From the NCBI GenBank assembly GCA_937976305.1, contig CALJSB010000027.1:29368-93367 (forward strand): DNA of 64,000 nt. The letters are read 5' to 3'. This document shows positions 3,832-40,046 of this stretch, one piece after another (the first letter of the stretch is position 1; each line of letters starts with the position of its first letter). Source of the stretch: an uncultured Acidimicrobiales bacterium. GTDB taxonomy: Bacteria; Actinomycetota; Acidimicrobiia; Acidimicrobiales; SZUA-35. The translations under genes were made by a program, and so were the position numbers. The notes under the pieces are model-generated. The model was not told the origin of the DNA. It made no database searches and saw only the letters and a program-made list of their open reading frames with translations.

Positions 3832-4037
3832 GTCGCGAGACTCACGTGGCGTCTTCCTTGCTGGGTTGCCGATGGTGGACGAGCCCAGTTCATCTCAGCG
3901 ATGAGCAGCTGGCCAACTCTGGCGACCAAGGTAACTGCGTCAAGACGCTGCGAGAGCCGAAGCCTGCGCACCTCGACACCGTGCCCAACACCACGGCGCT
4001 CACGCCGAGACGCAATCGACGATTAGCCTCTTCAGGA

Positions 4038-4697: not shown

Positions 4698-4701
4698 CGA
4701 G

Positions 4702-5904: not shown

Positions 5905-5939
5905 GGTGGTCCCCTAGTGGTTGTCTTTGGCCTTCGTGC

Positions 5940-7355: not shown

Positions 7356-7433
7356 CGAACCTCTTTCACTCTGTGCCGTTTCACACGGTGCCGTCGCTCC
7401 CGAAACTATCTCTCCCCGCCGACTCGGTCGAAC

Positions 7434-8573: not shown

Positions 8574-8606
8574 CGGAAAACTTGCAAGGAACTCCGGAGA
8601 AGCTCG

Positions 8607-11544: not shown

Positions 11545-11546
11545 GC

Positions 11547-12625: not shown

Positions 12626-12672
12626 GTTTGCTCCATGTACGTTCGAGGTCGTTGTTCCATGTGGGCACCACC

Positions 12673-12749
12673 CTGAGCGCAAGGCCTGAGAAGGTTCTGA
12701 GAAGTCCTGAGAGCCGCTTATGCGTTCTCAGTTTTTCCTCAGAACCCAG
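12673..12749. promoter_or_regulatory. Array of CTGAG/CTCAG boxes at 10-13 bp spacing, candidate OmpR-family binding sites
   Basis: CTGAG at 12673, 12686, 12697 and 12707; inverted CTCAG at 12727 and 12738; lies between the divergent exporter and two-component operons. Confidence 0.6.
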
Positions 12750-12764
12750 TGAGAGACTGTGCTC

Positions 12765-25635: not shown

Positions 25636-26262
25636 TCAGGTGTAGAAGGGGTTTTCGCCTGCTGAGTGATCGGTGGCGTCAACCACCTCGGTGATCTCGG
25701 GCAGGGCCTCAATCAGCATCTTCGAGATGCCGTCGCGCAGGGTCATGGCGCTGGCGGCACAACCTTGGCAGCCGCCGCCCATCGTCACGATCGCCTTCGA
25801 TCCGTCGACGCCAACCAGAGCAGCGAAGCCGCCGTGAGAGGCGAGCGCCGGATTGATGGCTCCGTCGAGCACAGCTTGGATCTTCTCGGGTAGTTCGCCG
25901 GTGAGGTCGAGATCGAGCCCATCGAGCGGGTTCGGCGTGTTGGGATTCCGAATGACCAGACCGCCGTTGTCGACGTTGGCCGGCACATCGAGGGTGGCGC
26001 CGGTCATCTTCTCGATCGAGTCTTTCGGGATGATCACGGTGAGTTCGTCGTGGTCGCCCTGGGTGTAGACGGCGTCGCCCTCTTCAGCCTCGGAGATGAG
26101 GCAAAGGTCGAGGGCGTACGTGAAGTCGGTCATGTTCGAGCCGGTGATGGCCACTCGCAGAGCGGACGCACCGGGGTCGTCTTCGGCCGCACGCACATCA
26201 AGCACGGTGGCCAGCGCTACTTCGGATACGGCCATCACTGTGTCTACATCAGTCGTCACCAT
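25636..26262 (-). CDS. nfuA: Fe-S biogenesis protein NfuA (degenerate A-type domain plus NifU C-terminal domain)
   Basis: ALRVAITG, GATLD...GGLVIRNPN, INPALASHGG, MGGGCQGC and VDATDHSAGENPFY. Confidence 0.88.
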   Translation of the reverse strand: MVTTDVDTVMAVSEVALATVLDVRAAEDDPGASALRVAITGSNMTDFTYALDLCLISEAEEGDAVYTQGDHDELTVIIPKDSIEKMTGATLDVPANVDNGGLVIRNPNTPNPLDGLDLDLTGELPEKIQAVLDGAINPALASHGGFAALVGVDGSKAIVTMGGGCQGCAASAMTLRDGISKMLIEALPEITEVVDATDHSAGENPFYT

Positions 26263-26307
26263 GTCAAGGATACCGACCCCGACCGCAGCGGCCATATCGT
26301 GCCCGTT

Positions 26308-27516
26308 GTGCCACGATCGACGAGCCCGGGAGCCGCAACGGCTGACGATGCGGTCTCTCAGCCGGTGTCGTGGCTCGCTGCGGTGTCTATTGCGCTGCGA
26401 ATTGCAGCTGCCGGGGCCCTGATCTTCGGTCCGTGGACCAACGAGGCAGTCGAACTGGCTGGTTGGGACATCGAACGGTTTTGGGAAATCGCCGGCATCA
26501 GTGGACGGCACTGGATCGACGAACCCGTCGAGTATCCGCCTGGCTCGGTTGTGCTGATCGAGGCATTGGTTGGTTCGTCCATCGTTGGCGCTCATCGACT
26601 GTTGGTAGCCATCTCGCTCGTGATCGACCTCAGCCTCGCCGCAGCACTGAACCGCTGGGTCGACCGCAACGCCGCGGCTGCCTATCTCATCCTTGGCCTG
26701 CCCCTCGTGCCAGGCGGCTTGCTCCGGTTCGACCTCTGGGTTGCCTTGCTCGCACTCGCAGCGTTGCTCGTTTTGCCTCGCCGCAAACCCCTGGCCTTCG
26801 GAGCGCTTGTCGCGACCGGAGCCGCCATCAAGATCATGCCGGTCGTGCTCATTCCTCTCGCCTTGGCGACGAGACAGTTCCGGTCTGCGATTGCCGCGTC
26901 GGCACTCGGCGTTGTTGCCATGGCTGGTTGGCTCGCGTACGGGTCAAGCGACGCCATTGGCCAGGTGTTGTCGCTGCGAGACGCGACGGGCTGGCACGTC
27001 GAGTCACTTCCCGGGGCGGCCATCGCTCTGTTTGGGGCAGAGACATCGCGGCTCGAGGCCGACGCCTTTCGCATCGGGACGATGTCGACAACGCTGGCCA
27101 ATGTCGGTCGGCTGATCTTCGCTGCTGCCGTCGTCGCCCTCGCCTGGGCTAGGGCAGCACACAAACGAACAGCTGACGACAACGCGAATGCCGTGATGGT
27201 GCTCGGCATGTTGGCAGCACTCGTGGTGACCGCTCCCCTGCTCTCCCCACAGTTTCTGCTCTGGCTCACACCGTTCGCCGCCGTCGCCGCCTCGCACCTC
27301 GGTTGGCGTCACCCGCTCATTGCCACGACCACCGCAACAGTCGTGATCACCGGCGCAACGCTCGCAGCCTTTGGCCCGCCCGACTTGCATGGCACGCCAC
27401 CGGCGGCCCTGCTCACCATTCGCAATCTCATGCTCATCGCCGTTGTCGCCCTGTCATGGCGAGAACTTTCCGTCAGCTGCGAACGTCCGACCAACAAGAA
27501 CGCTCCGAGCTCCTAA
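26308..27516 (+). CDS. GT-C fold membrane glycosyltransferase (GT87/DUF2029-like); start uncertain
   Basis: VEYPPGS, RFDL, GAAIKIMP, GWHVES and LSPQFLLWL; many TM helices. Confidence 0.78.
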   Translation: MPRSTSPGAATADDAVSQPVSWLAAVSIALRIAAAGALIFGPWTNEAVELAGWDIERFWEIAGISGRHWIDEPVEYPPGSVVLIEALVGSSIVGAHRLLVAISLVIDLSLAAALNRWVDRNAAAAYLILGLPLVPGGLLRFDLWVALLALAALLVLPRRKPLAFGALVATGAAIKIMPVVLIPLALATRQFRSAIAASALGVVAMAGWLAYGSSDAIGQVLSLRDATGWHVESLPGAAIALFGAETSRLEADAFRIGTMSTTLANVGRLIFAAAVVALAWARAAHKRTADDNANAVMVLGMLAALVVTAPLLSPQFLLWLTPFAAVAASHLGWRHPLIATTTATVVITGATLAAFGPPDLHGTPPAALLTIRNLMLIAVVALSWRELSVSCERPTNKNAPSS

Positions 27517-27612: not shown

Positions 27613-29859
27613 TCAGGCTTGGCGGAAGAGACGCTGGGGGTTGGGCACGCCGGCCCATGGTCGACTTGTGCGCAACCGCAGATCGATCACGTGGCCGACA
27701 AAGCGCGCACCCTGGCTCAGATCGGCTTTTGAGACGCCCTCAGCCCGGGCCTCGAACCGAAATGGGGTCTGACCAACGCTGAGCTCCGGGTGAGTCGCCA
27801 ATACTTCGACCAAGATCTTGAACCCGTCGGGCTCGAGCAGGCCGAGATCGAGCTGATCAAGACGCACGGCGAAAAACCCTGAAAGCGGATCATCAGTTCG
27901 TCCCAATCGGGACGGAAACAGCACTTGGGTCGAGCGAGACGCGGCCCGAGACAGCAGCGACCGTGAGCGAGAGAGCCCGACGTCAGAGCCACCCGGCATA
28001 CGCCGGCTCGCAACCACCAAGTTGTCGCCAGCACGGATGCCCCGAACGAGGTCGGGCAGTACCTCTGGGGGGTGTTGGAGGTCGCCATCGAGCACGACGG
28101 CTGTCGCTCCACGGGCCGCATTGAAGCCATCGACCACAGCCCCGCCAAGCCCACCCCACCGATCGGCGTCGGTGCGATGGATGAACGACACCGCGCCATC
28201 GCTGGAGGCAAGATCAGCCAGCACCGCTGGGGTTTCGTCGTCGGAGTCGTCAACAAAGATCAGCTCGTATGGCCACGCCGCTACCGCTGCAACCCGATCG
28301 GCGAGCTCCCTGACGTTGGCCGCTTCGTTCCGGGTCGGGACAATGACCGACACCAGATCGACTGAGCGCCGAACCGGCAAGACCGAGCGCACGGCAACCA
28401 CCGGATTGAACGTGAGGAACAGCAGCAGGGCGAGGGCCAGTGCGACGGCAAGGATGCGTTGGTCTTCGACGAGACCAAGCGCGAGTTGCGGGCCAGTCGG
28501 AAGCACAACGAGCGAAGCCATCGCGCTGATGGCAACGAAGCTGCGATTACGACCACCAGCCGTCGTGGGTGCCAGCAACATGAGCCCCCACAACAGGTAC
28601 CAAGGTTGCGTTGTGGGGTGGAGTAGGGCAAAGAGCGTGAGGCTCCAGCCGAGAGCGACCGGCGCCGATTGTTTGCCTGCCACCAGCAGCCAGACGGTGA
28701 CCACGCCGGCAAGCACGAGGCCGGAGGTTCTCGCCACGGCGAGCATCGTGGCCAAGTTGGCACCGGTGACGGTGTGGGCCGCCACCCCGATCACGCTGGT
28801 GACGCTCAGGTATGCCTCGACGGGATCGGCGCCCAACATGGCGTCGACCCAATCCCAACCCCAACCCGTGAGTCGCCCGGCCACACCGATGACGGAGAGT
28901 CCGAGCACTGCGGCGCCGACGGCGCGAAGCACGACCATCACTCGTGATGAAGCCGCTGTCACCCACGGCCACGCCAGGAACGCGACGCCGAGAACTGCAG
29001 GGATCTTGATCGACGCAGCGATAGCGCACAACACGATGCCAACGACCCGAAGCTGTGGCCGCAAACCGATCGCCACTCCGGCCAGCAGCACCGCCAGCAT
29101 CATGGCCTCGTTGTGTGCACCGGAAACAAGGTGGAGCAGGGTGAGCGGGTTGGCGATGGCCAACACCACAGCATCACGCGAGTTGCGCCCGAACCGTTTC
29201 GCCAAGTCGTGTACCGCCACGGCCGACACGATCAGGCCAACGATCGCAAGCCAGCGGAACATGATGACCGACCCAATCACATCGTCGGAGTTCGACGACA
29301 CGAGGGCTGAGACGTGCACAAAGATTGGGCCGTACACCACCGGTGCATCGAGGTAGAGCGGATCGATTGAGTCGAGCACTGCCGAGTCGCCGAGGGCACC
29401 CGGCCCTTCGCTGTAGACGTCAAAGCCCTCATCCGCGAGCTCTCCTTGAGCTGCGTAGGCGTAGACGTCGCGGCTCGCGAGCGGCGGACCAAGCGCAAAG
29501 GGCGCAGCCCACGCACAGATCACGAGCGCGAGCGCCAGCATCGGCACCGGCTCGGACAGCACAACCTTGCGCAGGCTGAGCCAGGCCCGCACCAGCAAAA
29601 TCATGCCGGCGTAGAACAAGCCCAGAGCGACGACGAGGTCGAGCGAGGGCGACACCGGAATCGTCGGCAGCGACCACAGCTGGCCATCTGCCCCCGGCGT
29701 TGCTGCGCCGGCCGCGGCACCACCAATCACGGCGAGCGACGTGGACAAGAAACCACCAACGGCAAGTAGGGCAAGCCGTCGACGAGGGACGGGTCGGCCA
29801 GTTGGCGATGGGGCGATCCCTTCCACGCCGGGATCGTACTGACTCTCCAACCCACGCAC
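27613..29859 (-). CDS. MptA/MptB-type polyprenol-phosphomannose alpha-mannosyltransferase fused to a GT2 (Ppm1/DPM1-like) domain
   Basis: N-terminal part PPLASRDVYAY, YGP, ANPL..LHLVSGAHNE, IK.PA, QPWY; C-terminal part VSVIVPTRNEAANV, FVDDSDD, GLGGAVVDG, DGDLQHPPE, VASR, DPLSGFF, GFKILVE. Confidence 0.85.
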   Translation of the reverse strand: MRGLESQYDPGVEGIAPSPTGRPVPRRRLALLAVGGFLSTSLAVIGGAAAGAATPGADGQLWSLPTIPVSPSLDLVVALGLFYAGMILLVRAWLSLRKVVLSEPVPMLALALVICAWAAPFALGPPLASRDVYAYAAQGELADEGFDVYSEGPGALGDSAVLDSIDPLYLDAPVVYGPIFVHVSALVSSNSDDVIGSVIMFRWLAIVGLIVSAVAVHDLAKRFGRNSRDAVVLAIANPLTLLHLVSGAHNEAMMLAVLLAGVAIGLRPQLRVVGIVLCAIAASIKIPAVLGVAFLAWPWVTAASSRVMVVLRAVGAAVLGLSVIGVAGRLTGWGWDWVDAMLGADPVEAYLSVTSVIGVAAHTVTGANLATMLAVARTSGLVLAGVVTVWLLVAGKQSAPVALGWSLTLFALLHPTTQPWYLLWGLMLLAPTTAGGRNRSFVAISAMASLVVLPTGPQLALGLVEDQRILAVALALALLLFLTFNPVVAVRSVLPVRRSVDLVSVIVPTRNEAANVRELADRVAAVAAWPYELIFVDDSDDETPAVLADLASSDGAVSFIHRTDADRWGGLGGAVVDGFNAARGATAVVLDGDLQHPPEVLPDLVRGIRAGDNLVVASRRMPGGSDVGLSRSRSLLSRAASRSTQVLFPSRLGRTDDPLSGFFAVRLDQLDLGLLEPDGFKILVEVLATHPELSVGQTPFRFEARAEGVSKADLSQGARFVGHVIDLRLRTSRPWAGVPNPQRLFRQA

Positions 29860-29887
29860 GTGGCTCGGCCCGGGAAGGTCCGCCCAG

Positions 29888-29944
29888 TTGACGAACCTAT
29901 GGAGTGTTATATACGTTTATTTACGTTCAAATGCCTTGAACGTA
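29888..29944 (+). promoter_or_regulatory. AT-rich sigma-A-like promoter with a 9-5-9 inverted repeat upstream of the WXG100-like operon
   Basis: TTGACG (29888), 18 nt, TACGTT (29912); then TACGTTCAA-atgcc-TTGAACGTA (29922-29944). Confidence 0.6.
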
Positions 29945-29975
29945 CGAAGCACAACAAACACAAGGGAACAAAATC

Positions 29976-30470
29976 ATGGCGATGCTCGGTGCAACACTCG
30001 AAGATCTGAACCAGCTGGCAACCAAGCTCAGCACAACTGCGGGAGACGTCGGAGCCACTCGGGAGGCAGCGCTCACGCTCACGACCGAAGTTGTTGACGG
30101 CGTGACCACCGCCGCAACCCGCGCCCAGCAGCAGATCACCACCGAAATGGACGCACTCAAGCTGTCGGTGACTGATGCCGTCGCCCAAGCCGACGCCGCC
30201 GACTGGACCGGCAACAACGCACAGCGGTTCCGGGAGTCGGCAGCCGGCTTCGGCGAAGCCATGGGAGCGGCTGAGCAAACAACGGCTGAGACCTTCGAAC
30301 TGTTCCGGGCCTCGGTCGTCGGCATGGCCGAGTCGCTCGATGCGTTTGTGCAGTCGCTGTCCGGGTCCCTCACCGAGGCCGAAAGCGCCGCTGGCGAAAT
30401 GTCTCGGGCCGTCGACGATCAATACAACGGCCTCGACCAGGTCATGAACCATGGCCTCGGCTACCGATAG
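29976..30470 (+). CDS. Elongated WXG100-like protein
   Basis: MAMLGATLEDLNQLA start, central DWTGNNAQRF, all-helical amphipathic sequence, C-terminal YNGLD (YxxxD); RBS AAGGGA. Confidence 0.8.
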   Translation: MAMLGATLEDLNQLATKLSTTAGDVGATREAALTLTTEVVDGVTTAATRAQQQITTEMDALKLSVTDAVAQADAADWTGNNAQRFRESAAGFGEAMGAAEQTTAETFELFRASVVGMAESLDAFVQSLSGSLTEAESAAGEMSRAVDDQYNGLDQVMNHGLGYR

Positions 30471-30845
30471 GTGCCGACCGCATCAGAGTTCGAGCAGTCC
30501 GCGCTCGAACTCGATCGAGCAGCAGAAGACACCGAGTCGTTGGTGGCCGGGGCCCGAGAACTGTTTGGCGAGAACGTGCTCAGCGGTGGAGGGCTCAGTC
30601 GCCTCGTCGAGTCAACGATCGACGTGACCGAACGGACGACTACTTCGACAGCAGCTGAGCTTCGCGAGTTGGCGAACGAGTGCCGATCCCGAGCGTCGGA
30701 GTGTCGTGCCTATGCCGCTGAGCTCGCGGCGTACAACGAACAGCTCGAGGCCTGGCAACGCGAACGCAACGCCCTACCACCAGGTGTCGCACCACCTCGC
30801 CGGCCAACCCGGCCAAGCCGCCCCGCTTCGTGGGTCGAGATCTGA
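30471..30845 (+). CDS. Small helical WXG100/LXG-like partner protein
   Basis: Abuts the previous stop codon; helix-LSGG-helix layout with a Pro-rich tail. Confidence 0.65.
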   Translation: MPTASEFEQSALELDRAAEDTESLVAGARELFGENVLSGGGLSRLVESTIDVTERTTTSTAAELRELANECRSRASECRAYAAELAAYNEQLEAWQRERNALPPGVAPPRRPTRPSRPASWVEI

Positions 30846-30857
30846 GAGAGATGAGCA

Positions 30858-32726
30858 ATGGGATCAGCGCAACAGGTCGCCATCGACCCAACTGAGGTTC
30901 GACGAAGCGCCGGACAGCTCCGCCTGCGGGCCGACAACGCAGACGACATCAGCGGAGAAGCAACTCGAGCGTTGTTCCGGGCCGGGCTGTCGTCGTCGGC
31001 GCCCTCTGCCCTTTCCGAGGTGGACGAAGAGCTGCACCTGTTGGCCGAAATTCTGGTGCAGCGAGCGAACATGGTCGACAGCAACCAGCTGACGCTCGCC
31101 CTCTACCCCTGGAGCCACGTCGAGCAGTTGTGGGAGTCGCTGGTCGACGGTGATGGTGCCACGGCGATCATCGCGGGCGACAACGCTCTTGTCATTGTGC
31201 GACAACACGCTGACGATCTCGACACCGACGGCGATGGCCTCATCGGGCTGACCGAGCTTCGGGCCGCTGCTGACGACCCAACCCACCCTGCCCTTGCTGC
31301 GGCGGCCACATCGCTCCTTGGGAGTCAGTCCACCCTCGACGCGCTCGTCGCCGCCACCGATGCCGAGATCTTCTTCGTGCCTGAGCTGGCGATCTCGACC
31401 TCCGCCCTCAGCGACCTGTTGGCCACCAACGACACATTGCGGCGGGACGCCGTGACCGCCGCATCCGCGCTGGCGGACGGCAAGACCACCGTCGAGATCG
31501 ACGGCAAGACGGTCGATGCCACGAAGATCGTTGCCGATGCGATCAACAATCAGGTGTTCTCCCACGACGCTGGTTCGGCCTATGAGTTCTTGCAGCTGTT
31601 GCCGAATTCGGCCAGCGGCGTACCCGGATTTTCGATCTTTGCCGCCCAGACCGACACGGTGCAGTCGCTCTACGACGCAGCCATGACCGATGTGGCCGAA
31701 GACGACTTCCTGACTCGATTCTCGATCGTGACGCAGATGCCCGAAACAACCGACGGGATCCGCAACCACTACATCACCGAGCTCTACGCCCTCGCTTCCA
31801 CATCCCTCGAGGGCATGGTCAACCCGGACCAGATGGGTGACCCGACGCAACCCGGCCATGGCGGAACCACCTGGCCCACGTGGGGCGCAGCCGCATCAAA
31901 CACCGTCAAGGGCGCCATTACCGGCGACACGACGATCCTCGGAAGGCCACCAACCAACATTGCCAAGCAGCTCATGGCAGACGGCAACCAAGAGATCGCC
32001 ACGACCATCCTCGGGAAGTACTTCGAGTTCGTCGAGATCTTCGGAGACGGCGACATCACTGACACCAAGGTCACGGACTTTCTCAACAGCTTCGACGAAG
32101 GCGAGCGCGAACTTCAGATTGCGTTTGCGCTCCAACTCGCAGCGATGACGACGGACGACCCGACGGAGAAACAGAAGTTCCAGCTCCAGTCAAACATCGC
32201 CGTCTCGGTCTACGAACAAGCAGTGATCGACGACGAACTCGACTTCAACCGGCTCGAAATCGAAGCGCGGATTGGCGCTCACGCTCTCACGGCCGTCATC
32301 TCGATCGCCTCGGGGGACCTGCCGCCCACATCGAAAAGTGTGGCGGAGATCATGACCGAGCACGGCAAACTCGAGCTCGAAGCCGAGGACGGCGAGGGCA
32401 CCTCTTTCGAGCTCGACGAACCCATCCCCCCGGGCCCGGAAGACAACAACCTCATCGATGACCTCGATCTCAGCGATGAGCTGAACCCGGCGAACTACGA
32501 ACTCAGCGAGATCGACATTCCGGGCATCGAACAGGTCGAACCCGTCTCGGGGATCGACACCACAACTGGACTGTCGGGCAACTCGAACGACTGGACGCAG
32601 CCGTCCACGCCCGTGTCGGACTGGACCACCTATGGCCAGCGAATGTCCGTCGTGGCAGATCTCTTGCACAAGCATCACGTGAATCCCGCCGCCTACGAAA
32701 ACGTCGACGTCATCCTCGATCGCTAG
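30858..32726 (+). CDS. Putative T7SS cargo protein: WXG100-like N-terminus, EF-hand-like motif, uncharacterised C-terminal domain
   Basis: VAIDPTEVRRSAGQL...RA N-terminus; DTDGDGLIGLTE; RNHYITELY...WPTWGAAAS...GNQEI...EQAVI. Confidence 0.7.
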   Translation: MGSAQQVAIDPTEVRRSAGQLRLRADNADDISGEATRALFRAGLSSSAPSALSEVDEELHLLAEILVQRANMVDSNQLTLALYPWSHVEQLWESLVDGDGATAIIAGDNALVIVRQHADDLDTDGDGLIGLTELRAAADDPTHPALAAAATSLLGSQSTLDALVAATDAEIFFVPELAISTSALSDLLATNDTLRRDAVTAASALADGKTTVEIDGKTVDATKIVADAINNQVFSHDAGSAYEFLQLLPNSASGVPGFSIFAAQTDTVQSLYDAAMTDVAEDDFLTRFSIVTQMPETTDGIRNHYITELYALASTSLEGMVNPDQMGDPTQPGHGGTTWPTWGAAASNTVKGAITGDTTILGRPPTNIAKQLMADGNQEIATTILGKYFEFVEIFGDGDITDTKVTDFLNSFDEGERELQIAFALQLAAMTTDDPTEKQKFQLQSNIAVSVYEQAVIDDELDFNRLEIEARIGAHALTAVISIASGDLPPTSKSVAEIMTEHGKLELEAEDGEGTSFELDEPIPPGPEDNNLIDDLDLSDELNPANYELSEIDIPGIEQVEPVSGIDTTTGLSGNSNDWTQPSTPVSDWTTYGQRMSVVADLLHKHHVNPAAYENVDVILDR

Positions 32727-32897
32727 CGGCCGCTGCTGGCCGCGCACCTGAGCTCGAGCACGGGCTGGGCCTCGGACTCTTGGTCGAGCGAGATTGTTGT
32801 TGCGGTAGACCGGCACCGTTGCCGGTGGTAGAAAAACGTCGGGCCAATCGGTGGAGGGAAAGCGGCAGATCGCCGGCCGAGGCCCGGAGGGAACAAC

Positions 32898-34022
32898 GTG
32901 AAGAAGATTCTTTTGGCGATGCTTCTCGTCGCCTCCGCCTTGGTTGCAACCGAGACCTCAGCGTCTGCGGCGTCCTACGACGGCACGACGTACCAGGAGC
33001 TACTACAAGACCCGACGCTGCACAACGAACACTCGATCGTGATCCGGTTCTACGCCGCCGTGTTTGCACGACAGCCAGACAACGACGGCATCCGGTTCTG
33101 GCTCGACCAGTACGACGGCGGTGAATGGTCAACGCGTCGCATCGCTGACTTCTTCGTGACCAGCGACGAGTTCAAAGCGCTGTACGGCGACAACACGTCG
33201 AACGCCCAGTTCGTCGACGCCGTGTACCCGAATGTTCTCGGCCGCCAACCCGACGCCAACGGTCGGTCCTTCTGGATCGGCTTTCTCGACGAGGGCAACA
33301 CTCGAGCCGAGATGGTCCTCCTTGTCTCGAACTCGCCCGAGTTCATCAACGCAAACCCACTGCCGTCCGACGGTCGGCCCATTCCGGCCCCGGTTGATGC
33401 CACTCGAGTCTTTGACGGACTCGTCAACTACAACGGCGTGGCGTTCCCCACCGAGAACGACTTTTCGAAGGGAACAAACGCTTGGTGGTATGCAGGCTAC
33501 GTCAACGTGTTGAGGCAAAAGTTCGACGCGCCACTCAACGCCACCAGTCGCACGCCGGTGGCGGGTGGTTACCAGTACGTCCTGGACACTGGTGACGTTT
33601 TTGAGTTCACCAATCCATCGTTGGACGTCTCCGGGCGACTCGCTCACTTCGATGTCAGCCGCGTGCCCCTCGAAACGCGATCAGCGATCGTCGTCGACGA
33701 GGTTCCCGATCTCGACCTCAGCTTCTTCGCCTACCAGTTCGTCAGCGGAAACGGCCGGATATCGGTCTGGGTGAGGTTCGCTAACGAGTCGGCGAGCAAC
33801 CAAGAATCGTTTGCCACCGAATGGGTACTCACCGATGCATCGGGCAATTCGTCGCTACCAGTCGTCGAATCAGGTTTGTCGGTGATACCAGCCGGCGGTA
33901 TCCGCGACGAGATCGCCATCTTCGAGTCAGACGCCGCAAAGGGGGGCACCGTCACCCTCGATGTGCAGTTCCAGGTCAACGGTCAGACCAACACCCGGAC
34001 CTTGACCCTCGACTTCGGCTAG
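32898..34022 (+). CDS. Secreted DUF4214-domain protein
   Basis: Signal peptide; RFYAAVFARQPDNDGIRFW...FVTSDEF...YPNVLGRQPDANGRSFW...SPEF; RBS GGAGGG. Confidence 0.82.
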   Translation: MKKILLAMLLVASALVATETSASAASYDGTTYQELLQDPTLHNEHSIVIRFYAAVFARQPDNDGIRFWLDQYDGGEWSTRRIADFFVTSDEFKALYGDNTSNAQFVDAVYPNVLGRQPDANGRSFWIGFLDEGNTRAEMVLLVSNSPEFINANPLPSDGRPIPAPVDATRVFDGLVNYNGVAFPTENDFSKGTNAWWYAGYVNVLRQKFDAPLNATSRTPVAGGYQYVLDTGDVFEFTNPSLDVSGRLAHFDVSRVPLETRSAIVVDEVPDLDLSFFAYQFVSGNGRISVWVRFANESASNQESFATEWVLTDASGNSSLPVVESGLSVIPAGGIRDEIAIFESDAAKGGTVTLDVQFQVNGQTNTRTLTLDFG

Positions 34023-34044
34023 CCCGTATCGCTGGCAGCGAAGC

Positions 34045-37000
34045 TCACGCAGCCAACTGCACGACGGCGACTCGGCCGCGGTCAACGATGACCGACCGGC
34101 CAACCGGCGCGTCGCGCAGGTCGGGGATGACGACCCGACAGATCTCTCCGTCGCGGCTCGTCGGGTTCACCAACATCACGGTGGCGTCGCTCAGCAACTT
34201 GCCGATCCAACTGTCGAACCCCTTTGCCGACCGAGGGCTCGCCGCAATCACCAGCGGCCGGCCCTCGGTGGCAGCCTGCGCGACCAGGGCAACACCCTCA
34301 TCGCGGCCGACGAGATCAGCGTTGCTCACAACCAGCGGGTCACTCGCTGCAAGCCGAGCCTCAATTCGATCGACGACCGCCCCGTGGGGTTCGCTCCCCT
34401 CACCCAGGACGACAAGCGGCCGCCCCGGCCGAACTTCGACCGAGCGCACCTCGAGATCTTCGTCGAGCCCGACAGCGAGCCTGTGGGTTGAGCCGTTGGT
34501 GACAACCTCAGGCAGGTCGGCGAGTGAGACCGTGGGCCCGAGTGTGCGGATCGGACTCGGCACTCCGCCGGCTGGCCGGAGACGGCGAACACGCTCGAGC
34601 CGGGATCGTGACAGGTCAGCAACCATGCCGATGAGTCCTGTGTCGGGATCGACAACGCTCAACGGCGCCCCAAGATTCGGGGCCCCACGGAGACCAAACA
34701 TCGCATAGCTCGATGGGTCTGCCAGATTGTGCAGCAGTCGAGTCGCAAGTCGACTGCGAACCCGGCCAGGTACGTCCCGATCGCTGGCACCAGTCACCAC
34801 GATCGGCGCGCCAGCGGCCAACCCTTCGCGGACCAAGCGTTCGAGCTCCACCGCTGCCTCGGCGCCACCTGCCGCAGCCACACCATCGGCAACGCTGGCC
34901 CAACCCCGAACCACGATCGCTGGTGGCTCACCGCCGTTCCGCACCGCTCGAGCAAGAACGCCAAGGCCCTTCAGAGCTCGCTCCGGCTCCCGGGGGCTGA
35001 GCACATCACCAACGCCAACGAAACTGTTGAGATCATCCAGCCCTCCGAGGCCGTCAAACACGTAGACAGAACGTCGCTGCTCCAGCAGGCCAACAACAGC
35101 GAGACGAATCGAATGCTCAACCGACGCTCGATCGCTCCCGAGAATCAATAGGCCCGACTCGGCGCTCGGCCAAATCAGGGGCAGCCGGCGCCGATGTTCC
35201 GGGTCATCAAGAAGGCCGAACGGAAGATCACCTGGTGCGTGGTCGGCGGCCTCATGCATCGCCACAGCGACATCATCGATCGCCACAGCTGTGAGCGGCT
35301 CGAGCCAGGGTGCACCGGCCCGCACTGCGGTCGAAGCGGACATCGCCGCTGCGATGGTGTCAACCGACGTTTCGGCACCATCATCAACCGCTTCGCACGC
35401 GTGGCCGGCGTTGAGTTCGGCCACGGTGTTGGCGTAGGTCGCAGCGAAGACGGGATCTTCGGCGAAGATTGCCGGATGAAGGACGAAGGGCTCGAACCTC
35501 TGGTCGACCTGCGTCTCACTCACGCTGGCCACCTGCACCTGGGCTAGCCGCTCAGCGCCGATCGCCAGCAGAGCTCGGCCAGGGATGGCCGGCAGTCGCG
35601 CTCCATCTGGCTGGTCGATCACATCGATGCTGTCGTTGCGGTCCTGCACACGGAGGCACACTCGGAGGTTGGTGTTGGCTCGGATCTGACCCGTCACGAC
35701 GCCCGCGGGTCGCTGGGTTGCCAACACGAGGTGAACACCGAGGGACCGTCCTCGGCGGGCGATGTCGACCAGACCGTCGAGGAAGTCGGGCAGCTCGTCG
35801 GCAAGGGTGGCGAACTCGTCAACGATCAGAACCAGCCGGGGAATCTCGACCGCCGCAGCCCGTTCAAGGTCAGATACATCACTTACACCCAACCGACGCA
35901 ACGTGCGTTCACGATCGGTAAGTTCGGCTCGCATGCTCGTCAACGCTCGAGCCGCTTCATCGGCATCAAGGTCGGTGACGACTGCCGCGACATGGGGCAG
36001 CCCGCTCACCGGATCAAAAGCACCTCCGCCCTTGAAGTCGACCAAGACGAACGACAACAACTCGGGCGGCTGGCGGAGGGCCAGGCTCGTCACGAGTGTT
36101 CGCAGAAACTCAGACTTACCCGAGCCGGTGGTTCCTGCCACGAGGGCGTGCGGGCCTTCGGCCACGAGGTCGAGTGAGACAACGCCGCCGGCCCCCATGC
36201 CCACGTCAGCAACGAGACGATCGGGTCGAGCATCCTGCCAACCCGTTTCAAAGTGAGGCGTTCCAAGGTCACCGATGCCGAAACGGTGCGGTAACGCCGT
36301 TGCCCCGTCAGCGGCGAGGGGGTCGACGAATGGGGCAAGCCCACGGGCCCACCCGAGCGCATCGTCGAGCGACAACGTCCATGCAGCCTTGATGAGATCG
36401 ACCGCCCCGCCCGAGAGAGTGCCGCCCGAACGAAGGCGAGCCCCGCCGTCTGCCGTGGCGTCAACCGTTACACCGCACGCTGCGGGCACCAGGGTCGAGG
36501 AGCCAATCCACAGCAAGCGGTGCGCGGTGTCGATACCCGCCAAGGCCTCGGCAAGCCCGCCAGCCCGAGTGGGTTCGACCCCATCGACGATGAGTAGACC
36601 TCCGACGTCAGAGCCCGTCACCTCTGCCAGCAATTCGTCTGTTTCCTCACAACCAACGCCAACACCAGCCAACGAAGGCAGCCACTTGGCCCAGTCCCAC
36701 TCCACCAAACGGTCAGCGGTGGTGATGAGAAACACCGGGAGCGACGCTGGACCATGGCGAACGACCTGTTCGAGCACAGCCCATCGCATCACTGCCATGG
36801 CGGGGCCACGGTCTCCGGTGATGGCCAAACCCATCCCAGCCGAAACGGTCACTGCAATCGGGACATCGCGAAGAGCCACTGCCTCGGGTACCAACTCGAC
36901 AACGGCGGGGTCATCGGTCCCGAACTCAAGAAGCGGCGTGGCCTCTTGCGTTCCCCGGCCGATGCTCACGGTGAGTTCGGCGGCATCGAGCTCTTGCCAG

Positions 37001-37569
37001 GGATAGCCACCGGCCACCAACGGATCGACGAGGGCGTCGGGATCATCGACCACGGCACGACGACGTCCCGCTTCTGCAACCGCCCATGCGCTCGCGGCGT
37101 CCGCGATCCGGTCTGCAGCAATCACGAGATCAGCAGACCGCCGACTCATCGCTCGACGGTGGGTCCACCTCGAGCCCAAGCTGCGACCGATCAACCCCAA
37201 GGCCGAGACCGCGGCGAGGACGGCGAACAAAGGTGAGAAGATCAGGGCAACCACTGCACCAGCAACGATCGACGAGGCCACCGCGGCCCACGGAATCGCA
37301 GTGGGGTCGCTTGGAAGCGGCTCAACATCGAGGATGAGACGAACCGCCTCGGGCTGCGACGCGACAGCCGTCGGCCCACGCTGCACGACGATTCGACCGT
37401 CCGCATCCGGCCGTGTTGGCCGGACCCACGTTGACACGGCACCGTCGATCAGGTCACCCCGACACACACCACCTTCGGGTTCGTCGCCGATCGCAGTGGC
37501 ATCGCCAACCACCGACACAGCAACATCGCCCCACCCGAGATTCCGCACGACATCCCATGACTTCGCCAT
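34045..37569 (-). CDS. FtsK/SpoIIIE family ATPase, EccC/EssC-like
   Basis: Two TM segments; GPHALVAGTTGSGKSE, VDFKGG, IVDEFA, ARRGRSLGVHLVLATQRP, IRANTNLRVCLRV and PGRA; later ATPase domains degenerate. Confidence 0.88.
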   Translation of the reverse strand: MAKSWDVVRNLGWGDVAVSVVGDATAIGDEPEGGVCRGDLIDGAVSTWVRPTRPDADGRIVVQRGPTAVASQPEAVRLILDVEPLPSDPTAIPWAAVASSIVAGAVVALIFSPLFAVLAAVSALGLIGRSLGSRWTHRRAMSRRSADLVIAADRIADAASAWAVAEAGRRRAVVDDPDALVDPLVAGGYPWQELDAAELTVSIGRGTQEATPLLEFGTDDPAVVELVPEAVALRDVPIAVTVSAGMGLAITGDRGPAMAVMRWAVLEQVVRHGPASLPVFLITTADRLVEWDWAKWLPSLAGVGVGCEETDELLAEVTGSDVGGLLIVDGVEPTRAGGLAEALAGIDTAHRLLWIGSSTLVPAACGVTVDATADGGARLRSGGTLSGGAVDLIKAAWTLSLDDALGWARGLAPFVDPLAADGATALPHRFGIGDLGTPHFETGWQDARPDRLVADVGMGAGGVVSLDLVAEGPHALVAGTTGSGKSEFLRTLVTSLALRQPPELLSFVLVDFKGGGAFDPVSGLPHVAAVVTDLDADEAARALTSMRAELTDRERTLRRLGVSDVSDLERAAAVEIPRLVLIVDEFATLADELPDFLDGLVDIARRGRSLGVHLVLATQRPAGVVTGQIRANTNLRVCLRVQDRNDSIDVIDQPDGARLPAIPGRALLAIGAERLAQVQVASVSETQVDQRFEPFVLHPAIFAEDPVFAATYANTVAELNAGHACEAVDDGAETSVDTIAAAMSASTAVRAGAPWLEPLTAVAIDDVAVAMHEAADHAPGDLPFGLLDDPEHRRRLPLIWPSAESGLLILGSDRASVEHSIRLAVVGLLEQRRSVYVFDGLGGLDDLNSFVGVGDVLSPREPERALKGLGVLARAVRNGGEPPAIVVRGWASVADGVAAAGGAEAAVELERLVREGLAAGAPIVVTGASDRDVPGRVRSRLATRLLHNLADPSSYAMFGLRGAPNLGAPLSVVDPDTGLIGMVADLSRSRLERVRRLRPAGGVPSPIRTLGPTVSLADLPEVVTNGSTHRLAVGLDEDLEVRSVEVRPGRPLVVLGEGSEPHGAVVDRIEARLAASDPLVVSNADLVGRDEGVALVAQAATEGRPLVIAASPRSAKGFDSWIGKLLSDATVMLVNPTSRDGEICRVVIPDLRDAPVGRSVIVDRGRVAVVQLAA

Positions 37570-37573
37570 CCCA

Positions 37574-37611
37574 TAACTGTAATTGAATGTATTTAACAGT
37601 AGTTACAGTTA
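37574..37611. promoter_or_regulatory. AT-rich inverted repeat TAACTGTAA-N20-TTACAGTTA overlapping a leaderless -10 box of the FtsK gene
   Basis: Minus strand reads TACAGT, 6 nt, ATG (37569). Confidence 0.6.
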
Positions 37612-37633
37612 GGTAAGTTCGCCCCGCATCTCC

Positions 37634-37681
37634 GTTCTGGAGGCTCCTACCGTCGTTTCAGACGGTGGAGTGCTCCAGAAC
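37634..37681. repeat. 48-bp palindromic element (GTTCTGGAG...CTCCAGAAC)
   Basis: Strong hairpin with inner CTCC-ACCGTC/GACGGT-GGAG pairing; same length as the other five copies; may also act as a terminator. Confidence 0.75.
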
Positions 37682-37714
37682 GGGGTTCAGGGTGCCTGTG
37701 TTGTTACGGGTTGG

Positions 37715-38974
37715 TCAGTCGTCAGAGAGGCTGGGGAATCCCGAGTGGTCGCGTTTGCCGGTTGCCGCTTCGGCCATGGCTTTGACGCCTTCGACGGTGG
37801 CGAGCATGTTGGTTCGGAACATCTCTTGGCGTCGGCCGATCACAACGCTCTCGAGTTCTCGCGCCTCGCTCTCAGAGGCCCCGCCATCGACAGCACGATC
37901 GATCATGTCGGAGAGACCCGATCGACCAGGACCGATCCGGCCGTGGAATCGCAGTCGACTACCGCCCGGAACCTTCTCGATCGCGAAGCGCCAGCGGCCA
38001 GCTGAATCGTCGACGTCCTCGACATGCCAAGCAAAGGCCTTCGGCGCGTCCCACTCGACCACGTGACTGGTTGTGGTCCACTCAGCCCCGTCCCGCTTGT
38101 TGCGCCCCGTGAACGTCGAGCCGACACCAGGGGCCTCATCCGGAGCGTCCCAGCTTCCTCCGACGTACTCGTCGCTGAACTCGGCGGGGACGTTGAGATC
38201 CGTCACGAGATCCCACACCACCCGAGGGCTCGCCTTCACATCGACCTCGACCATGACCCCCGGTCCGTCCGCGATCGACCGAGGTTCACTCCGGCTGTCG
38301 GCGAGCGTGCGCCCGTAGCGGTCAAAGTAGGTGATCTCACGCGCCGGGTAGCGCCTGCTGGTCGGCTTGAAGTCGGCCCCGATCGTGTGGGCCACAGGGA
38401 ACAACGCGATCTGCGTCACGTCATCGGGCAGCTGCAGAAGCTCCGCGACGTTGTCGGCCTCGTTGAGGAACATGGTGGTCCACACGGTGCCCAGGCCACG
38501 AGCTCGCAGAGCAACCATGAAACTCCACGCAGATTGGATGACTGAATCGAACAGACCCGGACGCCCACTCCCGTCGTGACGGCCGATGATCGTCGGGATC
38601 ACCAGGGCCGGCGTTCGGGCAATGTTCTCGCCCAGATGCTTGGCCCCGAGCATCAGCTTCTCGTTCTGGTGGCCGGTTCCTTCGAGCTCCTCGGCCTTCT
38701 TGATCACCCATTCGACGCCAGCAGAGAGGTAGAGCTCGGCCATGCGATCTTTGGTCGCTTGATCGCGAATGATCATCCAACGACGACTGCCGTTGTTGCC
38801 CCCAGTCGGCGCCTGTTCGGCCACGTCGATGCAGTCGAGGAGGACCTGATCATCGACATCACGGTCGAAGTCGAGCCTGGCCCGCACCCCTCTTGTGGTC
38901 GTGAGCGCATGGTCGACGAGATCGACGTAGCTCGCTGATGCTGGCGCAAACGGTGGGTCTTGTGCTGTCGTCAT
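37715..38974 (-). CDS. Nitroreductase family domain fused to an SRPBCC (polyketide cyclase-like) domain
   Basis: LTTTRGVR, AEQAPTGGN, ALRARGLGTVWTT; C-terminal VEVDVKASPRVVWDLVTD...GSTFTGRN...FAW...WRF. Confidence 0.85.
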   Translation of the reverse strand: MTTAQDPPFAPASASYVDLVDHALTTTRGVRARLDFDRDVDDQVLLDCIDVAEQAPTGGNNGSRRWMIIRDQATKDRMAELYLSAGVEWVIKKAEELEGTGHQNEKLMLGAKHLGENIARTPALVIPTIIGRHDGSGRPGLFDSVIQSAWSFMVALRARGLGTVWTTMFLNEADNVAELLQLPDDVTQIALFPVAHTIGADFKPTSRRYPAREITYFDRYGRTLADSRSEPRSIADGPGVMVEVDVKASPRVVWDLVTDLNVPAEFSDEYVGGSWDAPDEAPGVGSTFTGRNKRDGAEWTTTSHVVEWDAPKAFAWHVEDVDDSAGRWRFAIEKVPGGSRLRFHGRIGPGRSGLSDMIDRAVDGGASESEARELESVVIGRRQEMFRTNMLATVEGVKAMAEAATGKRDHSGFPSLSDD

Positions 38975-38984
38975 AGATCTGTCG

Positions 38985-40046
38985 TCATCGGGTCGCTTCG
39001 TTGTCGGCCACAGCGTTGATCTTGGCCAACGCCATCTCGTCTGCGACATCTGAGGACGGCCGCGACTCGTCGCGTGCCGTCTGCAGTATCGATCGAATCG
39101 TGTCGTAGAGCCCGTCGATCTTGGTGAGCGAGGCTTCTCGTGATGGCGGTCCGTAGATGACGGTGGCCGCCCCCATGACACCGCCGGCGTTCACCACGAA
39201 GTCGGGCACATACGCGATCCCACGATCCCGCAGGGCCGCACCATGTCGTGGCTCGGCGAGCTGGTTGTTCGCCAACCCACACACCGCCGTTGCCTGCAGT
39301 TCGCTGATGGTCTGATCGTTGAGGACGGCACCCATGGCGCACGGCGCAAACACGTCGACGTCTTGGGCGTGGATGACGTTTGGCGCCGCTGCTTTGGCGC
39401 CGAAGGCCGCTACGGCGTCGGCAACCGCCGCCTCGTCGATGTCGGCCACGATCAGTTCGGCACCTGCTTCGTGGAGATGGCCGGCGAGCCGCGATCCGGT
39501 CGCCCCAAGGCCTTGGATAGCGACCCGAACGCCGGAAAGATCATCGCTCCCCCGGGTGTGCGCCATGACCGCCCGGATGCCGTTGAGTCCGCCGAGCGCA
39601 GTGAACGCTGACGGATTGAAGCCCGGTTCGTATTGGCTGGCCCGAGCGAACGTGTAGTCGCACGTTTCCGCCAACACGTCGGCATCCGCCGGGCCGACAC
39701 CGACATCGATCGCCGTCCAATATCGCCCGGCCAAGGCCTGAACATGGCGACCGAATGACCGCAGCAGCACGTCTTTGTCGGGTCTCGACGGATCAGCGAT
39801 GATGACGCACTTGCCTCCGCCGAGGGGCAGGTCGGCCAGCGCATTCTTATAGCTCATGCCCTGTGACAGCCGCAGCACGTCGCGCAGCGCATCTGCCTCT
39901 GTTGCATAGGGCTGCATACGGCAACCACCGGCTGCGGGACCGAGCGCAGTCGAGTGAATGGCAATGATCGCCGAGAGCCCAACGCTGGGATCAGAGCAGA
40001 ACACAACCTGTTCGTGCCCGTCGAAGTCCTGGTGCTCGAAGATCAC
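38985..40046 (-). CDS. Glu/Leu/Phe/Val dehydrogenase
   Basis: HEQVVFC, IAIHSTALGPAAGGCR, MSYKNA, GGGK, DVG, QGLG, APCAMG, ANN and PDFVVNAGG. Confidence 0.92.
   Translation of the reverse strand: MIFEHQDFDGHEQVVFCSDPSVGLSAIIAIHSTALGPAAGGCRMQPYATEADALRDVLRLSQGMSYKNALADLPLGGGKCVIIADPSRPDKDVLLRSFGRHVQALAGRYWTAIDVGVGPADADVLAETCDYTFARASQYEPGFNPSAFTALGGLNGIRAVMAHTRGSDDLSGVRVAIQGLGATGSRLAGHLHEAGAELIVADIDEAAVADAVAAFGAKAAAPNVIHAQDVDVFAPCAMGAVLNDQTISELQATAVCGLANNQLAEPRHGAALRDRGIAYVPDFVVNAGGVMGAATVIYGPPSREASLTKIDGLYDTIRSILQTARDESRPSSDVADEMALAKINAVADNEATR

Follow-up and report, generated by a model that had tools for sequence, protein, structure and literature searches.

A probable, divergent type VII-like export module in the core genome of an Acidimicrobiales clade

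The stretch of DNA analysed here, referred to below as the window, comprises 64,000 nucleotides (nt) from an uncultured Acidimicrobiales bacterium (contig CALJSB010000027.1 of assembly GCA_937976305.1) and carries a block of five genes that encode an EccC/EssC-type membrane ATPase, three largely helical proteins and a protein with a predicted Sec signal. We consider it probable, though with some reserve, that the ATPase and the helical proteins constitute a divergent type VII-like export module belonging to the core genome of an Acidimicrobiales clade. A preliminary description of this DNA had proposed a stripped-down type VII secretion system (T7SS) consisting of an ATPase plus its substrates. 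Our sequence comparisons and models support that proposal, and none of the outcomes that it had named as refuting it (WXG-like proteins that do not model as helical hairpins, a block that is not conserved with the ATPase, or a complete canonical ESX locus elsewhere that accounts for the substrates) came about. The contig (C27) is part of a 4.42-Mb genome in 160 contigs that is 91.6% complete, and its DNA occurs in three DNA sequencing runs of one marine metagenome study, with no RNA run listed. All five open reading frames (ORFs) were found at the positions first given for them, and they are real genes because all have orthologues in other genomes:

29976-30470, forward strand: g164, an elongated WXG-hairpin protein of 164 amino acids (aa), remotely WXG100-like.
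30471-30845, forward strand: g124, a helical partner of 124 aa, whose GTG start abuts the g164 stop.
30858-32726, forward strand: g622, the candidate cargo, of 622 aa (the third gene).
32898-34022, forward strand: the DUF4214 gene, of 374 aa, predicted to be Sec-exported, accessory.
34045-37569, reverse strand: the ATPase gene, of 1174 aa, an EccC/EssC-type membrane ATPase with no FHA domain.

The ATPase gene is convergent with the other four and its end lies 22 nt from the 374-aa gene. Its initial identification as a convergent membrane FtsK ATPase resembling EccC and EssC was confirmed by matches to FtsK/SpoIIIE and, under the model cut-offs, to EssC and EccCa, as well as by one hydrophobic stretch. 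More specifically, Pfam gives one strong FtsK_SpoIIIE match (residues 448-622, 2.6e-33) and no FHA domain at E<=0.1, and the top three NCBIfam models, all under cut-off, are EssC (302.7 bits, cut-off 778.4), EccCa (263.3 bits, cut-off 509.15) and EccCb (163.3 bits, cut-off 346.55). The best PDB sequence match (phmmer) is EccC of T. curvata, 4nh0 (1.7e-68). The NCBIfam models for FtsK (74.7 bits) and plasmid TraB (36 bits) score far below those for EssC and EccC, and a conjugative TraB/FtsK DNA translocase was rejected on these much lower scores together with the EccC-specific DUF and D2-D3 regions. The following parts of the protein can be placed on the window:

37174..37302, reverse strand: putative transmembrane hairpin, ATPase residues 90-132, a single 43-residue hydrophobic stretch on the Kyte-Doolittle scale.
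36673..36894, reverse strand: EccC DUF-like (degenerate first NTPase-like) stretch, ATPase residues 226-299, matching EccC structures.
35500..36228, reverse strand: D1, ATPase residues ~448-690, in which alone the Walker A (GTTGSGKS) and Walker B (VDEF) motifs are intact.
34048..35472, reverse strand: D2-D3, ATPase residues 700-1174, colinear to D2-D3 of EccC/EssC, with both P-loops decayed.

Residues 90-132 are the only part of the ATPase in which 19-residue Kyte-Doolittle windows exceed 1.6, and the stretch is kept in 14 of 14 aligned orthologues with FSP(L/I)FA at its centre. We read it as a putative two-helix membrane hairpin, for which its length suffices. Residues 226-299 align with residues 24-97 of 4nh0 (domain i-E 0.012), with the EccC5 fragment 8rin_A (4.1e-4) and with positions 168-244 of the NCBIfam EccCa model, while D1 (450-713) aligns with residues 276-552 of 4nh0 and keeps the motifs GTTG(S/A)GKSE and (V/I)DEF in all 14 orthologues. 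A profile of residues 700-1174, built from the 14 orthologues, matches residues 593-982 of 4nh0 (1.2e-19), EssC of G. thermodenitrificans (4lya, 1.7e-18), EccC5 (3.5e-12) and EccCb1 (1.3e-9). The P-loops of this half are decayed throughout: GK[ST] is present in D2 of 0/14 orthologues, and the Walker lysine of D3 is lost in 14/14, with GxGR[ST][ST] left in 12/14. Even this D3 remnant is gone from the window ATPase and from that of locus L052, and the window ATPase also lacks the acidic Walker B pair. The N-terminus of the protein is variable and the best-conserved part of D3 is formed by its last ~45 residues. Taken as a whole, the ATPase has the full EccC layout (hairpin, DUF region and D1-D2-D3 in EccC order), and only D1 looks catalytic. 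Degenerate D3 domains have been reported in EssC of some Firmicutes.

Over D1, the window ATPase is 56-80% identical to orthologues of the same short type and 54-64% identical to longer ATPases (~1100-1600 aa) of other Acidimicrobiales genera, several of which lie next to g164 homologues. Identity is 47% to an ATPase of one genome of the same bacterial family (G049:C70), 38% to the FHA-type EssC of the genome itself, 37% to a bona fide ESX EccC (G049:C90, also of the same family) and 35% to FtsK. A quick tree, which is descriptive and carries a long-branch warning, places the short and longer forms together and the FHA-type, ESX and FtsK sequences on very long branches. A word-index search with the C-terminal half of the ATPase returned seven proteins.

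The second element that suggests a type VII-like system is g164. The W-T-G and YxxxD sequences first noticed in this protein are present (W77-T-G79 and Y150-x-x-x-D154), and the prediction that it forms a helical hairpin holds in an AlphaFold2 (AF2) model with a mean predicted local distance difference test score (pLDDT) of 91.9, in which long helices 8-74 and 80-162 are joined by a loop containing W77-T-G79. In an alignment of 64 sequences, residues W77, G79, N81 and F85 are invariant. Toward the C-terminus, Q149 is likewise invariant, L153, D154, M157, N158 and G160 are each kept in 63/64, and position 161 is hydrophobic in 63/64. In this alignment YxxxD is peculiar to the genus and is not a family feature, because position 150 is Tyr in 4/64 and Arg in 53/64; as an export motif of the g164 family it was rejected on the same count. 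The C-terminal pattern HxxxD/ExxhxxxH is described for WXG100 proteins in the excerpted text of Poulsen et al. (2014, PMC3935865); when the g164 motif is set against it, the D/E, h and final H positions fit, and the first H position is mostly Arg.

A g164 profile search of 1.84 billion representatives found 114 proteins at E<=1e-3, nearly all of 160-167 aa. When g164 and 55 library relatives were scanned singly, Pfam WXG100 was matched by 9/56 at E<=0.01 (best 1.9e-5) and Pfam YwqH-like by 6/56. Profile comparison (hhalign) with 18 canonical WXG100 proteins of the same bacterial family gave E 1.4e-3 and a probability of 18% for a close g164 profile, and E 1.2e-4 and 55% for a wide one; the wide g164 hidden Markov model (HMM) also weakly matches the canonical WXG100 protein of the genome itself (E 1.4e-3). 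At 164 aa, g164 lies outside the length of ~100 residues expected of a WXG100 protein. We regard it as a remote, double-length member of the WXG100 superfamily, with a homology that is supported but weak on sequence and model, and as a candidate for either a TsxA/EsxA-like core substrate or a Lap1-like targeting factor. Structure searches with the model gave no Foldseek match at E<=0.001; in a wide VIA-align search generic long hairpins came top (Z 11.4-8.8), with EsxA (2vrz, Z 9.3) and LapD2 (7uh4, Z 9.3) among them. Two of the proteins found with the profile are unusual. In the metagenomic protein P0150 (417 aa) a g164-like hairpin (profile residues 3-150, E 1.2e-7) is the N-domain of a nuclease, since a NucA/NucB DNase domain that scores over the Pfam cut-off comes after it. 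P0129 (5033 aa) matches the profile in 43 separate stretches (E 4.2e-15) and is probably a giant coiled-coil repeat protein, not a relative.

Three WXG100-like genes had been proposed for this locus. This stands for g164, which has the WXG; g124 and the first ~95 residues of g622 are helical and have no WXG. The conserved features of g124 are a Gly-Gly turn near residue 40 with an invariant G40, the sequence C-R-x-R-A-x-x-C-R-x-Y, and a tail rich in Pro and Arg, with W-V-E-(I/V) as a frequent ending. Its Pfam WXG100_2 match is under cut-off (E 0.05), and its ESM features resemble those of actinobacterial small-protein clusters, some labelled T7SS_signal or WXG100 (0.86-0.90), which we take as a lead only. 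Complex prediction for g164 with g124 from two alignments scored 0.00, a value that is uninformative either way, and PDB profile searches with either protein returned noise such as coronavirus spike HR1 and the dynein regulatory complex.

The third gene is modular. The first ~95 residues are common to 11 of 11 aligned third-gene products, with the pattern V-x-I-D-P...L-R...E-E-L-x-x-L...R, while the C-termini differ and the lengths range from 287 to 629 aa. Seven of the 11 are 605-629 aa long and can be aligned to g622 throughout (29-56% identity). The others include a 287-aa product, two tandem copies of 328 and 352 aa in one genome (G025) and one of 332 aa in another (G034); the tails of the 328-aa and 332-aa copies are hydrophobic and rich in Gly/Ala, and downstream of each comes a small ORF (148-189 aa) for which one or two membrane segments are predicted; that of 148 aa is lipoprotein-like. 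In more distant loci, third genes of 474, 842, 912 and 1047 aa are found. Judged by these alignments, the third gene has the architecture of a polymorphic effector, and the Gly-rich third genes with their small membrane ORFs suggest toxin/immunity pairs in relatives. No recognisable toxin domain and no immunity-like gene are present in this genome itself. A role in competition is hinted at in relatives only, by the Gly-rich C-termini with membrane ORFs and by the NucA/NucB fusion.

The AF2 model of g622 (mean pLDDT 74.5) has an N-terminal hairpin of low confidence (helices 11-42 and 48-74, pLDDT ~57-67) and, over residues 110-460, an all-alpha body whose 10-residue blocks score ~69-96, mostly at least 80. 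One canonical-looking EF-hand loop lies at residues 120-137, under the Pfam cut-offs. The body gave no family or fold match in Pfam, Foldseek (none at E<=0.001) or a profile search of PDB sequences (0 matches at E<=1), and a word-index search found only g622 itself and one protein of the same genus. A VIA-align search, effectively with the N-terminal hairpin only, returned 8gmh_E (Z 8.9), EsxOP (8.3) and EsxA (8.2), tied with unrelated hairpins. A lead from the ESM Atlas to DUF6571/TPR_23 (0.87) for the body was not borne out by Pfam.

The genes are also conserved together. Full-length ATPase orthologues (39-63% identical, ~1150-1300 aa) occur in five genera among 61 scanned genomes of the same family, and 15 orthologous loci were inspected. 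Both g164 and g124 are present in 12 of these; in the other three a contig end interrupts the locus, and g164 is found on another small contig of the genome. The usual order is a GT87 gene, an MptB/GT2 fusion, g164, g124, the third gene, sometimes a DUF4214 gene, the convergent ATPase and an aminotransferase. When GTDB species genomes were scanned with the alignment of g164, 32 loci came up, all in Acidimicrobiales or Acidimicrobiia metagenome-assembled genomes (MAGs). In these, g164 is accompanied by g124 in 31 cases and by an ATPase of this kind in 18 (13 convergent, four divergent just upstream and one co-directional). The five divergent and co-directional loci have unrelated flanks. Two further loci (G011 and G056) have g164, g124 and the ATPase co-directional, and g164 is adjacent to an ATPase in G030:C26, G018:C39 and G054:C4 as well. 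The linkage of the block to the ATPase, on which the preliminary description relied, is upheld by these counts in three gene orders. For 10 of the 14 loci with no ATPase, the available sequence stops short on one side or both. Across the 61 genomes, whose kinship makes such counts descriptive only, g164 is found in 33, and 32 of these have an ATPase match at E<=1e-50 (the exception is 79% complete); 16 of the 28 genomes lacking g164 still have an ATPase match, mainly to the D1 region of longer proteins (1286-1957 aa). The clade of g164, g124 and the third gene was confined to Acidimicrobiales in every search made here. The g164-g124 cassette is thus usually, not always, beside the ATPase, as Lap-LXG cassettes are in Firmicutes, and the module belongs to the core genome of an Acidimicrobiales clade in which it is kept across many genera.

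Several of these loci have contents of their own. In three ATPase-less cassettes (L110, at 10001-13286, L109 and L119), g164 and g124 are followed by a gene of 473 or 474 aa with the shared N-domain, and in L109 and L110 an ORF of 287/288 aa comes next, the one in L110 being an FGE-sulfatase (SUMF1-like, 5.3e-81). One MAG has two complete modules on different contigs, L114 (CBESNA010000026.1) and L107 (CBESNA010000040.1). One is of the convergent short-ATPase type and the other combines a 1047-aa third gene with an ATPase ORF that is divergent and has an open frame of 1449 aa; the D3 region of the 1449-aa ORF has P-loop-family Pfam matches at residues ~1250-1360.

The partners that accompany EccC or EssC in canonical systems were searched for with HMMs; positive controls matched in all of these searches except that for EccE, and EssA was not among the components searched. 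As the preliminary description had held for the window, no T7SS-related Pfam family occurs among the 17 neighbouring ORFs scanned. In the genome as a whole, EccB, EccD and EssB gave 0 matches, and the nearest candidate for the mycosin MycP is one generic subtilase at the end of contig C24, which scores 135.3 bits with a cut-off of 278.75. EccB and EccD are each over cut-off in one of the 61 family genomes (G049 in both cases) and EssB in 0/61. The EsaA N-terminus was found in 0/5 genomes, the present one included, and the ubiquitin-like YukD in 0/5 (the present genome, G000, and four of G025, G005, G019, G047 and G012). The EccE model likewise gave 0/5, yet it matched no control genome either and is uninformative. 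With EccB, EccD, EssB, EsaA and YukD all at zero, the genome, as far as its 91.6% completeness allows, has no complete canonical ESX or Ess locus elsewhere. The single family genome with ordinary ESX, G049, has two such loci, each with EccB, EccD, EccC and WXG100 pairs (L059, L061-L064, L123 and L124), and the confinement of ESX loci to this genome suggests that they have a separate origin from the Acidimicrobiales-type modules.

The ATPase had been called lone, but a second EssC-like gene with an FHA domain stands beside a WXG100 gene on another contig of the same genome (C73; L012, G000:C73:24000-43999, 2800-13552). It encodes an ATPase of 1426 aa with an N-terminal FHA domain (1.2e-11), and upstream of it lie genes for a WXG100 protein, a PP2C phosphatase, an FHA protein, two proteins of no assigned family and a transglutaminase-like protein, with a MoxR AAA gene just upstream of the operon. 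The WXG100 protein (Pfam 54.6 bits) has F-x-G in place of W-x-G. This locus is probably not the real exporter of g164, because relatives lacking a C73-type locus or WXG100 keep the module. In five such genomes (G025, in two contigs, G005, G019, G047 and G012), g164 and the short ATPase are present, no other EssC-like match is found besides FtsK, and Pfam WXG100 is over cut-off in 0/5. Over the family, WXG100 is over cut-off in 22/61 genomes, and in 0/15 of those of genera g6, g10 and g12 together.

By analogy with known systems, the module may work as follows. The ATPase would be an EccC/EssC homologue that is anchored by its two-helix hairpin and probably assembles as a hexamer, a state known from solved EccC complexes. 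Only D1 would hydrolyse ATP, with D2 and D3 kept in a non-catalytic form, and the conserved C-terminus of D3 would be the likely dock for substrates. The long WXG hairpin of g164 and the helical g124 would be co-translated and could form a bundle with the helical N-domain (~95 aa) that the third gene encodes, giving a rod-shaped pre-secretion complex like Lap1-Lap2-LXG or EsxA-EsxB. The docking signal that meets the ATPase may be the C-terminal motif of g164, Q-x-x-x-L-D-x-x-M-N-x-G followed by a hydrophobic residue. The cargo here would be the 622-aa, all-alpha, EF-hand-bearing protein; elsewhere the cargo slot would be filled by shorter, Gly-rich, membrane-active-looking proteins that are followed by small membrane ORFs. 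The DUF4214 protein would leave by Sec and be a neighbour only. As to the remaining parts of the machine, either the ATPase suffices or its partners are of a kind that our models do not recognise. A bolder version, which we consider rather unlikely, is that in these monoderm bacteria a single polypeptide forms the whole type VII translocon, in which the hairpins of the hexamer would serve as the channel, D2 and D3 as 'fossil' docks, and g164 with g124 as a universal adaptor for swappable cargo.

A number of observations weigh against an export module. Export itself, the three-protein complex and the sufficiency of the ATPase are what we infer. In this very genome D3, the domain by which EccC binds substrates, is the most decayed of the ATPase domains. 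The relation of g164 to WXG100 proteins is distant: Pfam WXG100 gives no match at E<=0.1 to g164 itself, the close-family hhalign comparison reaches the 18% given above at most, a profile search of PDB sequences returned coiled-coil noise only, and YxxxD is not conserved in the family. The long hairpin fold is generic, EsxA, Lap proteins (LapD2) and LXG proteins (the TelA-LXG complex) tying with unrelated hairpins (chemoreceptors, SMC), and hhalign of g124 with WXG100 detected no relation (probability 0.6%). Since the flanks are conserved as well, the gene order by itself might be inherited synteny, and the adjacency in 13 loci could partly be frozen core-genome synteny shared with the glycosyltransferases and the aminotransferase. 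Moreover, the ATPase is missing around g164-g124 in four loci where the sequence extends for 7.5 kb or more to either side, and genera g8 and g14 carry g164 and the ATPase on different contigs.

Among other explanations, the one that survives best, and which we hold possible though doubtful, is that the system is not minimal, being a T7SS-like exporter whose essential membrane or ubiquitin-like partners are too diverged for HMMs or are encoded elsewhere. The assembly leaves room for such genes, as it is incomplete and in many contigs, the EccE search says nothing and EssA lay outside the search; the FHA, PP2C and two unassigned proteins of the C73 locus could also be shared between the two systems. 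Subtype-specific parts such as TsdH and TsdI escape standard HMMs, according to the excerpted survey of Garrett et al. (2024, PMC11217815). On the other side, nothing else is conserved beside the ATPase across the three gene orders, the near-absence of EccB and EccD and the absence of EssB extend over near-complete assemblies of 2-8 contigs, EsaA and YukD gave no match in five genomes each, and relatives with no C73-type locus keep the module.

A function outside secretion is improbable in our view. It would have an ATPase with one live motor and long coiled coils serving an envelope or intracellular task, for instance in the remodelling of membranes, the assembly of the cell wall or the response to stress. 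The core-genome site among cell-envelope glycosyltransferases (GT87 and MptB/GT2) and an aminotransferase in 13 loci is consistent with such a task, as are the likeness of the g164 hairpin to non-secreted coiled coils (chemoreceptors, SMC, PspA, EnvC) and the loss of two of three ATPase domains. However, both the DUF region and the colinear D2-D3 half are features specific to EccC/EssC; g164 has an invariant WXG turn and a transitive link to WXG100; the third gene shows a modular build; one family member is fused to a DNase domain, as is typical of exported polymorphic toxins; and the linkage is also seen away from the glycosyltransferases. Finally, that the three helical proteins serve the FHA-type EssC system on C73, which would leave the short ATPase with a different or regulatory role, we consider very unlikely: such a second locus does exist (with its 1426-aa ATPase, WXG100, PP2C and FHA proteins), some g164 cassettes are unlinked to any ATPase, and Lap-LXG cassettes often lie apart from the machine that they serve (Garrett et al. 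2024, PMC11217815, as excerpted), but the five genomes named above have g164 with the short ATPase and neither another EssC-like ATPase nor WXG100, the 15 genomes of g6, g10 and g12 have no WXG100, and the ATPases next to which g164 is found, in three different gene orders, are those of its own clade. A divergent type VII-like export module is the reading that we retain.

The remaining features of the locus are the DUF4214 gene, the adjoining genes and the intergenic regions. The description of the fourth gene product as a Sec-exported DUF4214 protein agrees with a predicted N-terminal hydrophobic signal segment (residues 3-23) and with Pfam DUF4214 (PF13946, 4.2e-27, 94.4 bits with a cut-off of 23.2) in two stretches. 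It is matched in full length at the same-genus locus only, the DUF4214 stretch (48-150) alone occurs in four other loci, and the rest of the 15 lack it; by this comparison, the protein is a variable accessory neighbour outside the conserved core. The adjoining genes and intergenic regions are:

26050-27516, forward strand: GT87-family membrane glycosyltransferase, beside the module and kept in 13 related loci.
27613-29859, reverse strand: fusion of an MptB-like mannosyltransferase with a GT2 domain, 748 aa, divergent from the operon and kept in 13 related loci.
29860..29975, no strand: AT-rich region upstream of the operon, between it and the MptB/GT2 gene, with a GC content of 0.47 and a core (29900-29950) at 0.37.
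37570..37714, no strand: AT-rich region upstream of the ATPase, with a GC content of 0.51 and its first 60 nt at 0.38.

The GC content of the window is 0.63. AT-rich promoters with inverted repeats had been proposed at both ends of the block. The regions are indeed AT-rich and contain perfect 9-nt inverted repeats that are rare by chance (29922-29944 upstream of the operon, equalled in 11/2000 shuffles; 37574-37582 with 37603-37611 upstream of the ATPase, in 15/2000), but the repeats are not conserved and a scan for consensus sigma-70 promoters and terminators found nothing in either region. Upstream of g164, TTGAC and a doubled ATTTAC motif are kept in 5/5 loci, and the inverted repeat is not; upstream of the ATPase, the same-genus locus L044 shares only the stretch next to the start codon and L045 shares none. 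The repeats were rejected as conserved operators since they are not kept in related loci. A 32-nt imperfect inverted repeat (37623-37692, 72% complementary, 6-nt loop) also lies between the end of a nitroreductase-like gene and the ATPase upstream region and may be a terminator or leader structure. That gene (37715-39181, reverse strand) is a 488-aa ORF with a nitroreductase domain and an SRPBCC/polyketide-cyclase-like domain, and its position, with the ATPase on one side and the aminotransferase on the other, is shared among the loci compared only by the window and the closest same-genus genome (L044/L091). Farther away, 20159-22300 (forward strand) encodes a 713-aa protein with two cyclic-nucleotide-binding domains and a patatin-like phospholipase domain.

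How T7SS move folded helical dimers over the membrane is unsettled, as are the parts that are essential for it, and we know of no studied T7SS subtype without several membrane partners. If the module exports protein, the minimal parts list of a T7SS would narrow and a small system would be available for reconstitution, its parts being only an ATPase with one catalytic domain and a distinct, double-length WXG adaptor, with no ubiquitin-like protein found. Type VII-like secretion, and with it possibly contact-dependent competition, would then also reach to the Acidimicrobiales of the sea, which are abundant and uncultured. If a single polypeptide did form the translocon, this would be the simplest natural T7SS and a tractable one for asking how folded helical bundles cross membranes. 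A full-text literature search for Acidimicrobiia together with type VII secretion found no paper, although the clade may still be among the accessions of Garrett et al.

Compared with T7SSa (ESX), the ATPase has the N-terminal transmembrane hairpin, the DUF-like region and the three FtsK-like domains of EccC (T. curvata 4NH0; M. tuberculosis EccC5 7NP7) in the same order and, like it, no FHA domain; the host is likewise actinobacterial and a WXG-type hairpin protein is encoded next door. Unlike in ESX, EccB, EccD, EccE and MycP were not found (the EccE search being uninformative), the ATPase scores below the cut-offs for EccCa and EccCb, its P-loops in D2 and D3 are decayed, and g164 has 164 aa instead of ~100 and no second WXG paralogue with which to pair. 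The Lap1/Lap2-LXG cassettes of T7SSb have a similar layout, with a pair of small helical genes ahead of a larger one whose product keeps its helical N-domain and varies at the C-terminus. In the excerpted text of Klein et al. (2022, PMC9600955), Lap1 (DUF3130) and Lap2 (DUF3958) are targeting factors of T7SSb LXG effectors and WXG100-like hairpins with a C-terminal FxxxD-type motif; the conserved C-terminal L-D-x-x-M motif of g164 may be its counterpart. Chains of 8gmh, a structure from this kind of cassette, are among the top structural matches for the g164 and g622 models, tied with unrelated hairpins, and no Pfam LXG, DUF3130 or DUF3958 was found among g164, g124, g622 and the 11 third-gene products. 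In contrast to T7SSb, the host is an actinobacterium, EssB, EsaA and YukD were not found, and the ATPase has no FHA domain. The sequence evidence places the module outside T7SSa and T7SSb, whose defining partners were searched for and not found.

A closer parallel may be sought in the wider T7SSc-j set, which includes T7SSd of Olsenella and Bifidobacterium; the statements on it that follow are limited to the excerpted text of Garrett, Higginson & Palmer (2024, PMC11217815), which has no mention of Acidimicrobiia. There, the field's definition of a T7SS is a TsxC ATPase with a WXG-type hairpin, which the present module fits. T7SSd combines an actinobacterial TsxC ATPase with a TsxA hairpin, has no EccB, EccD or EccE and no ubiquitin-like TsxB, and its substrates sit with small WXG100-related partner genes, all of which resembles the present module (PMC11217815). 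The C73 locus of the same genome, with its FHA-type EssC, WXG100, PP2C and FHA protein, resembles the subtypes rich in kinases, phosphatases and FHA proteins (PMC11217815). The differences are that the focal ATPase lacks FHA, that no match to the TsdD kinase occurs in the 17 neighbouring ORFs scanned (the search did not extend to TsdH and the Ig-rich TsdI, for which no public model exists), and that four predicted NTPase domains are stated for each TsxC, whereas here only D1 keeps its motifs (PMC11217815). We would not assign the module to T7SSd, given an ATPase that lacks FHA and a neighbourhood in which no kinase gene was seen.

The idea of modules made of an ATPase and WXG100 proteins only is already known. 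Pallen in 2002, Sutcliffe in 2011 and Zhang, Iyer and Aravind in 2012 are said to have pointed out that an EccC/YueA-like ATPase with WXG-type proteins can stand alone, and such modules reportedly occur in other phyla (Chloroflexi, Planctomycetes, Helicobacter and others). The present module resembles these in combining an ATPase with WXG-type proteins and no ESX or Ess membrane parts. What appears from sequence to be new, and sets it apart from them, is an FHA-less ATPase with one live domain and no recognisable partner, together with a 164-aa WXG hairpin family, a fixed 124-aa partner and an N-domain shared by the third genes, a combination that in our searches is confined to the Acidimicrobiales.

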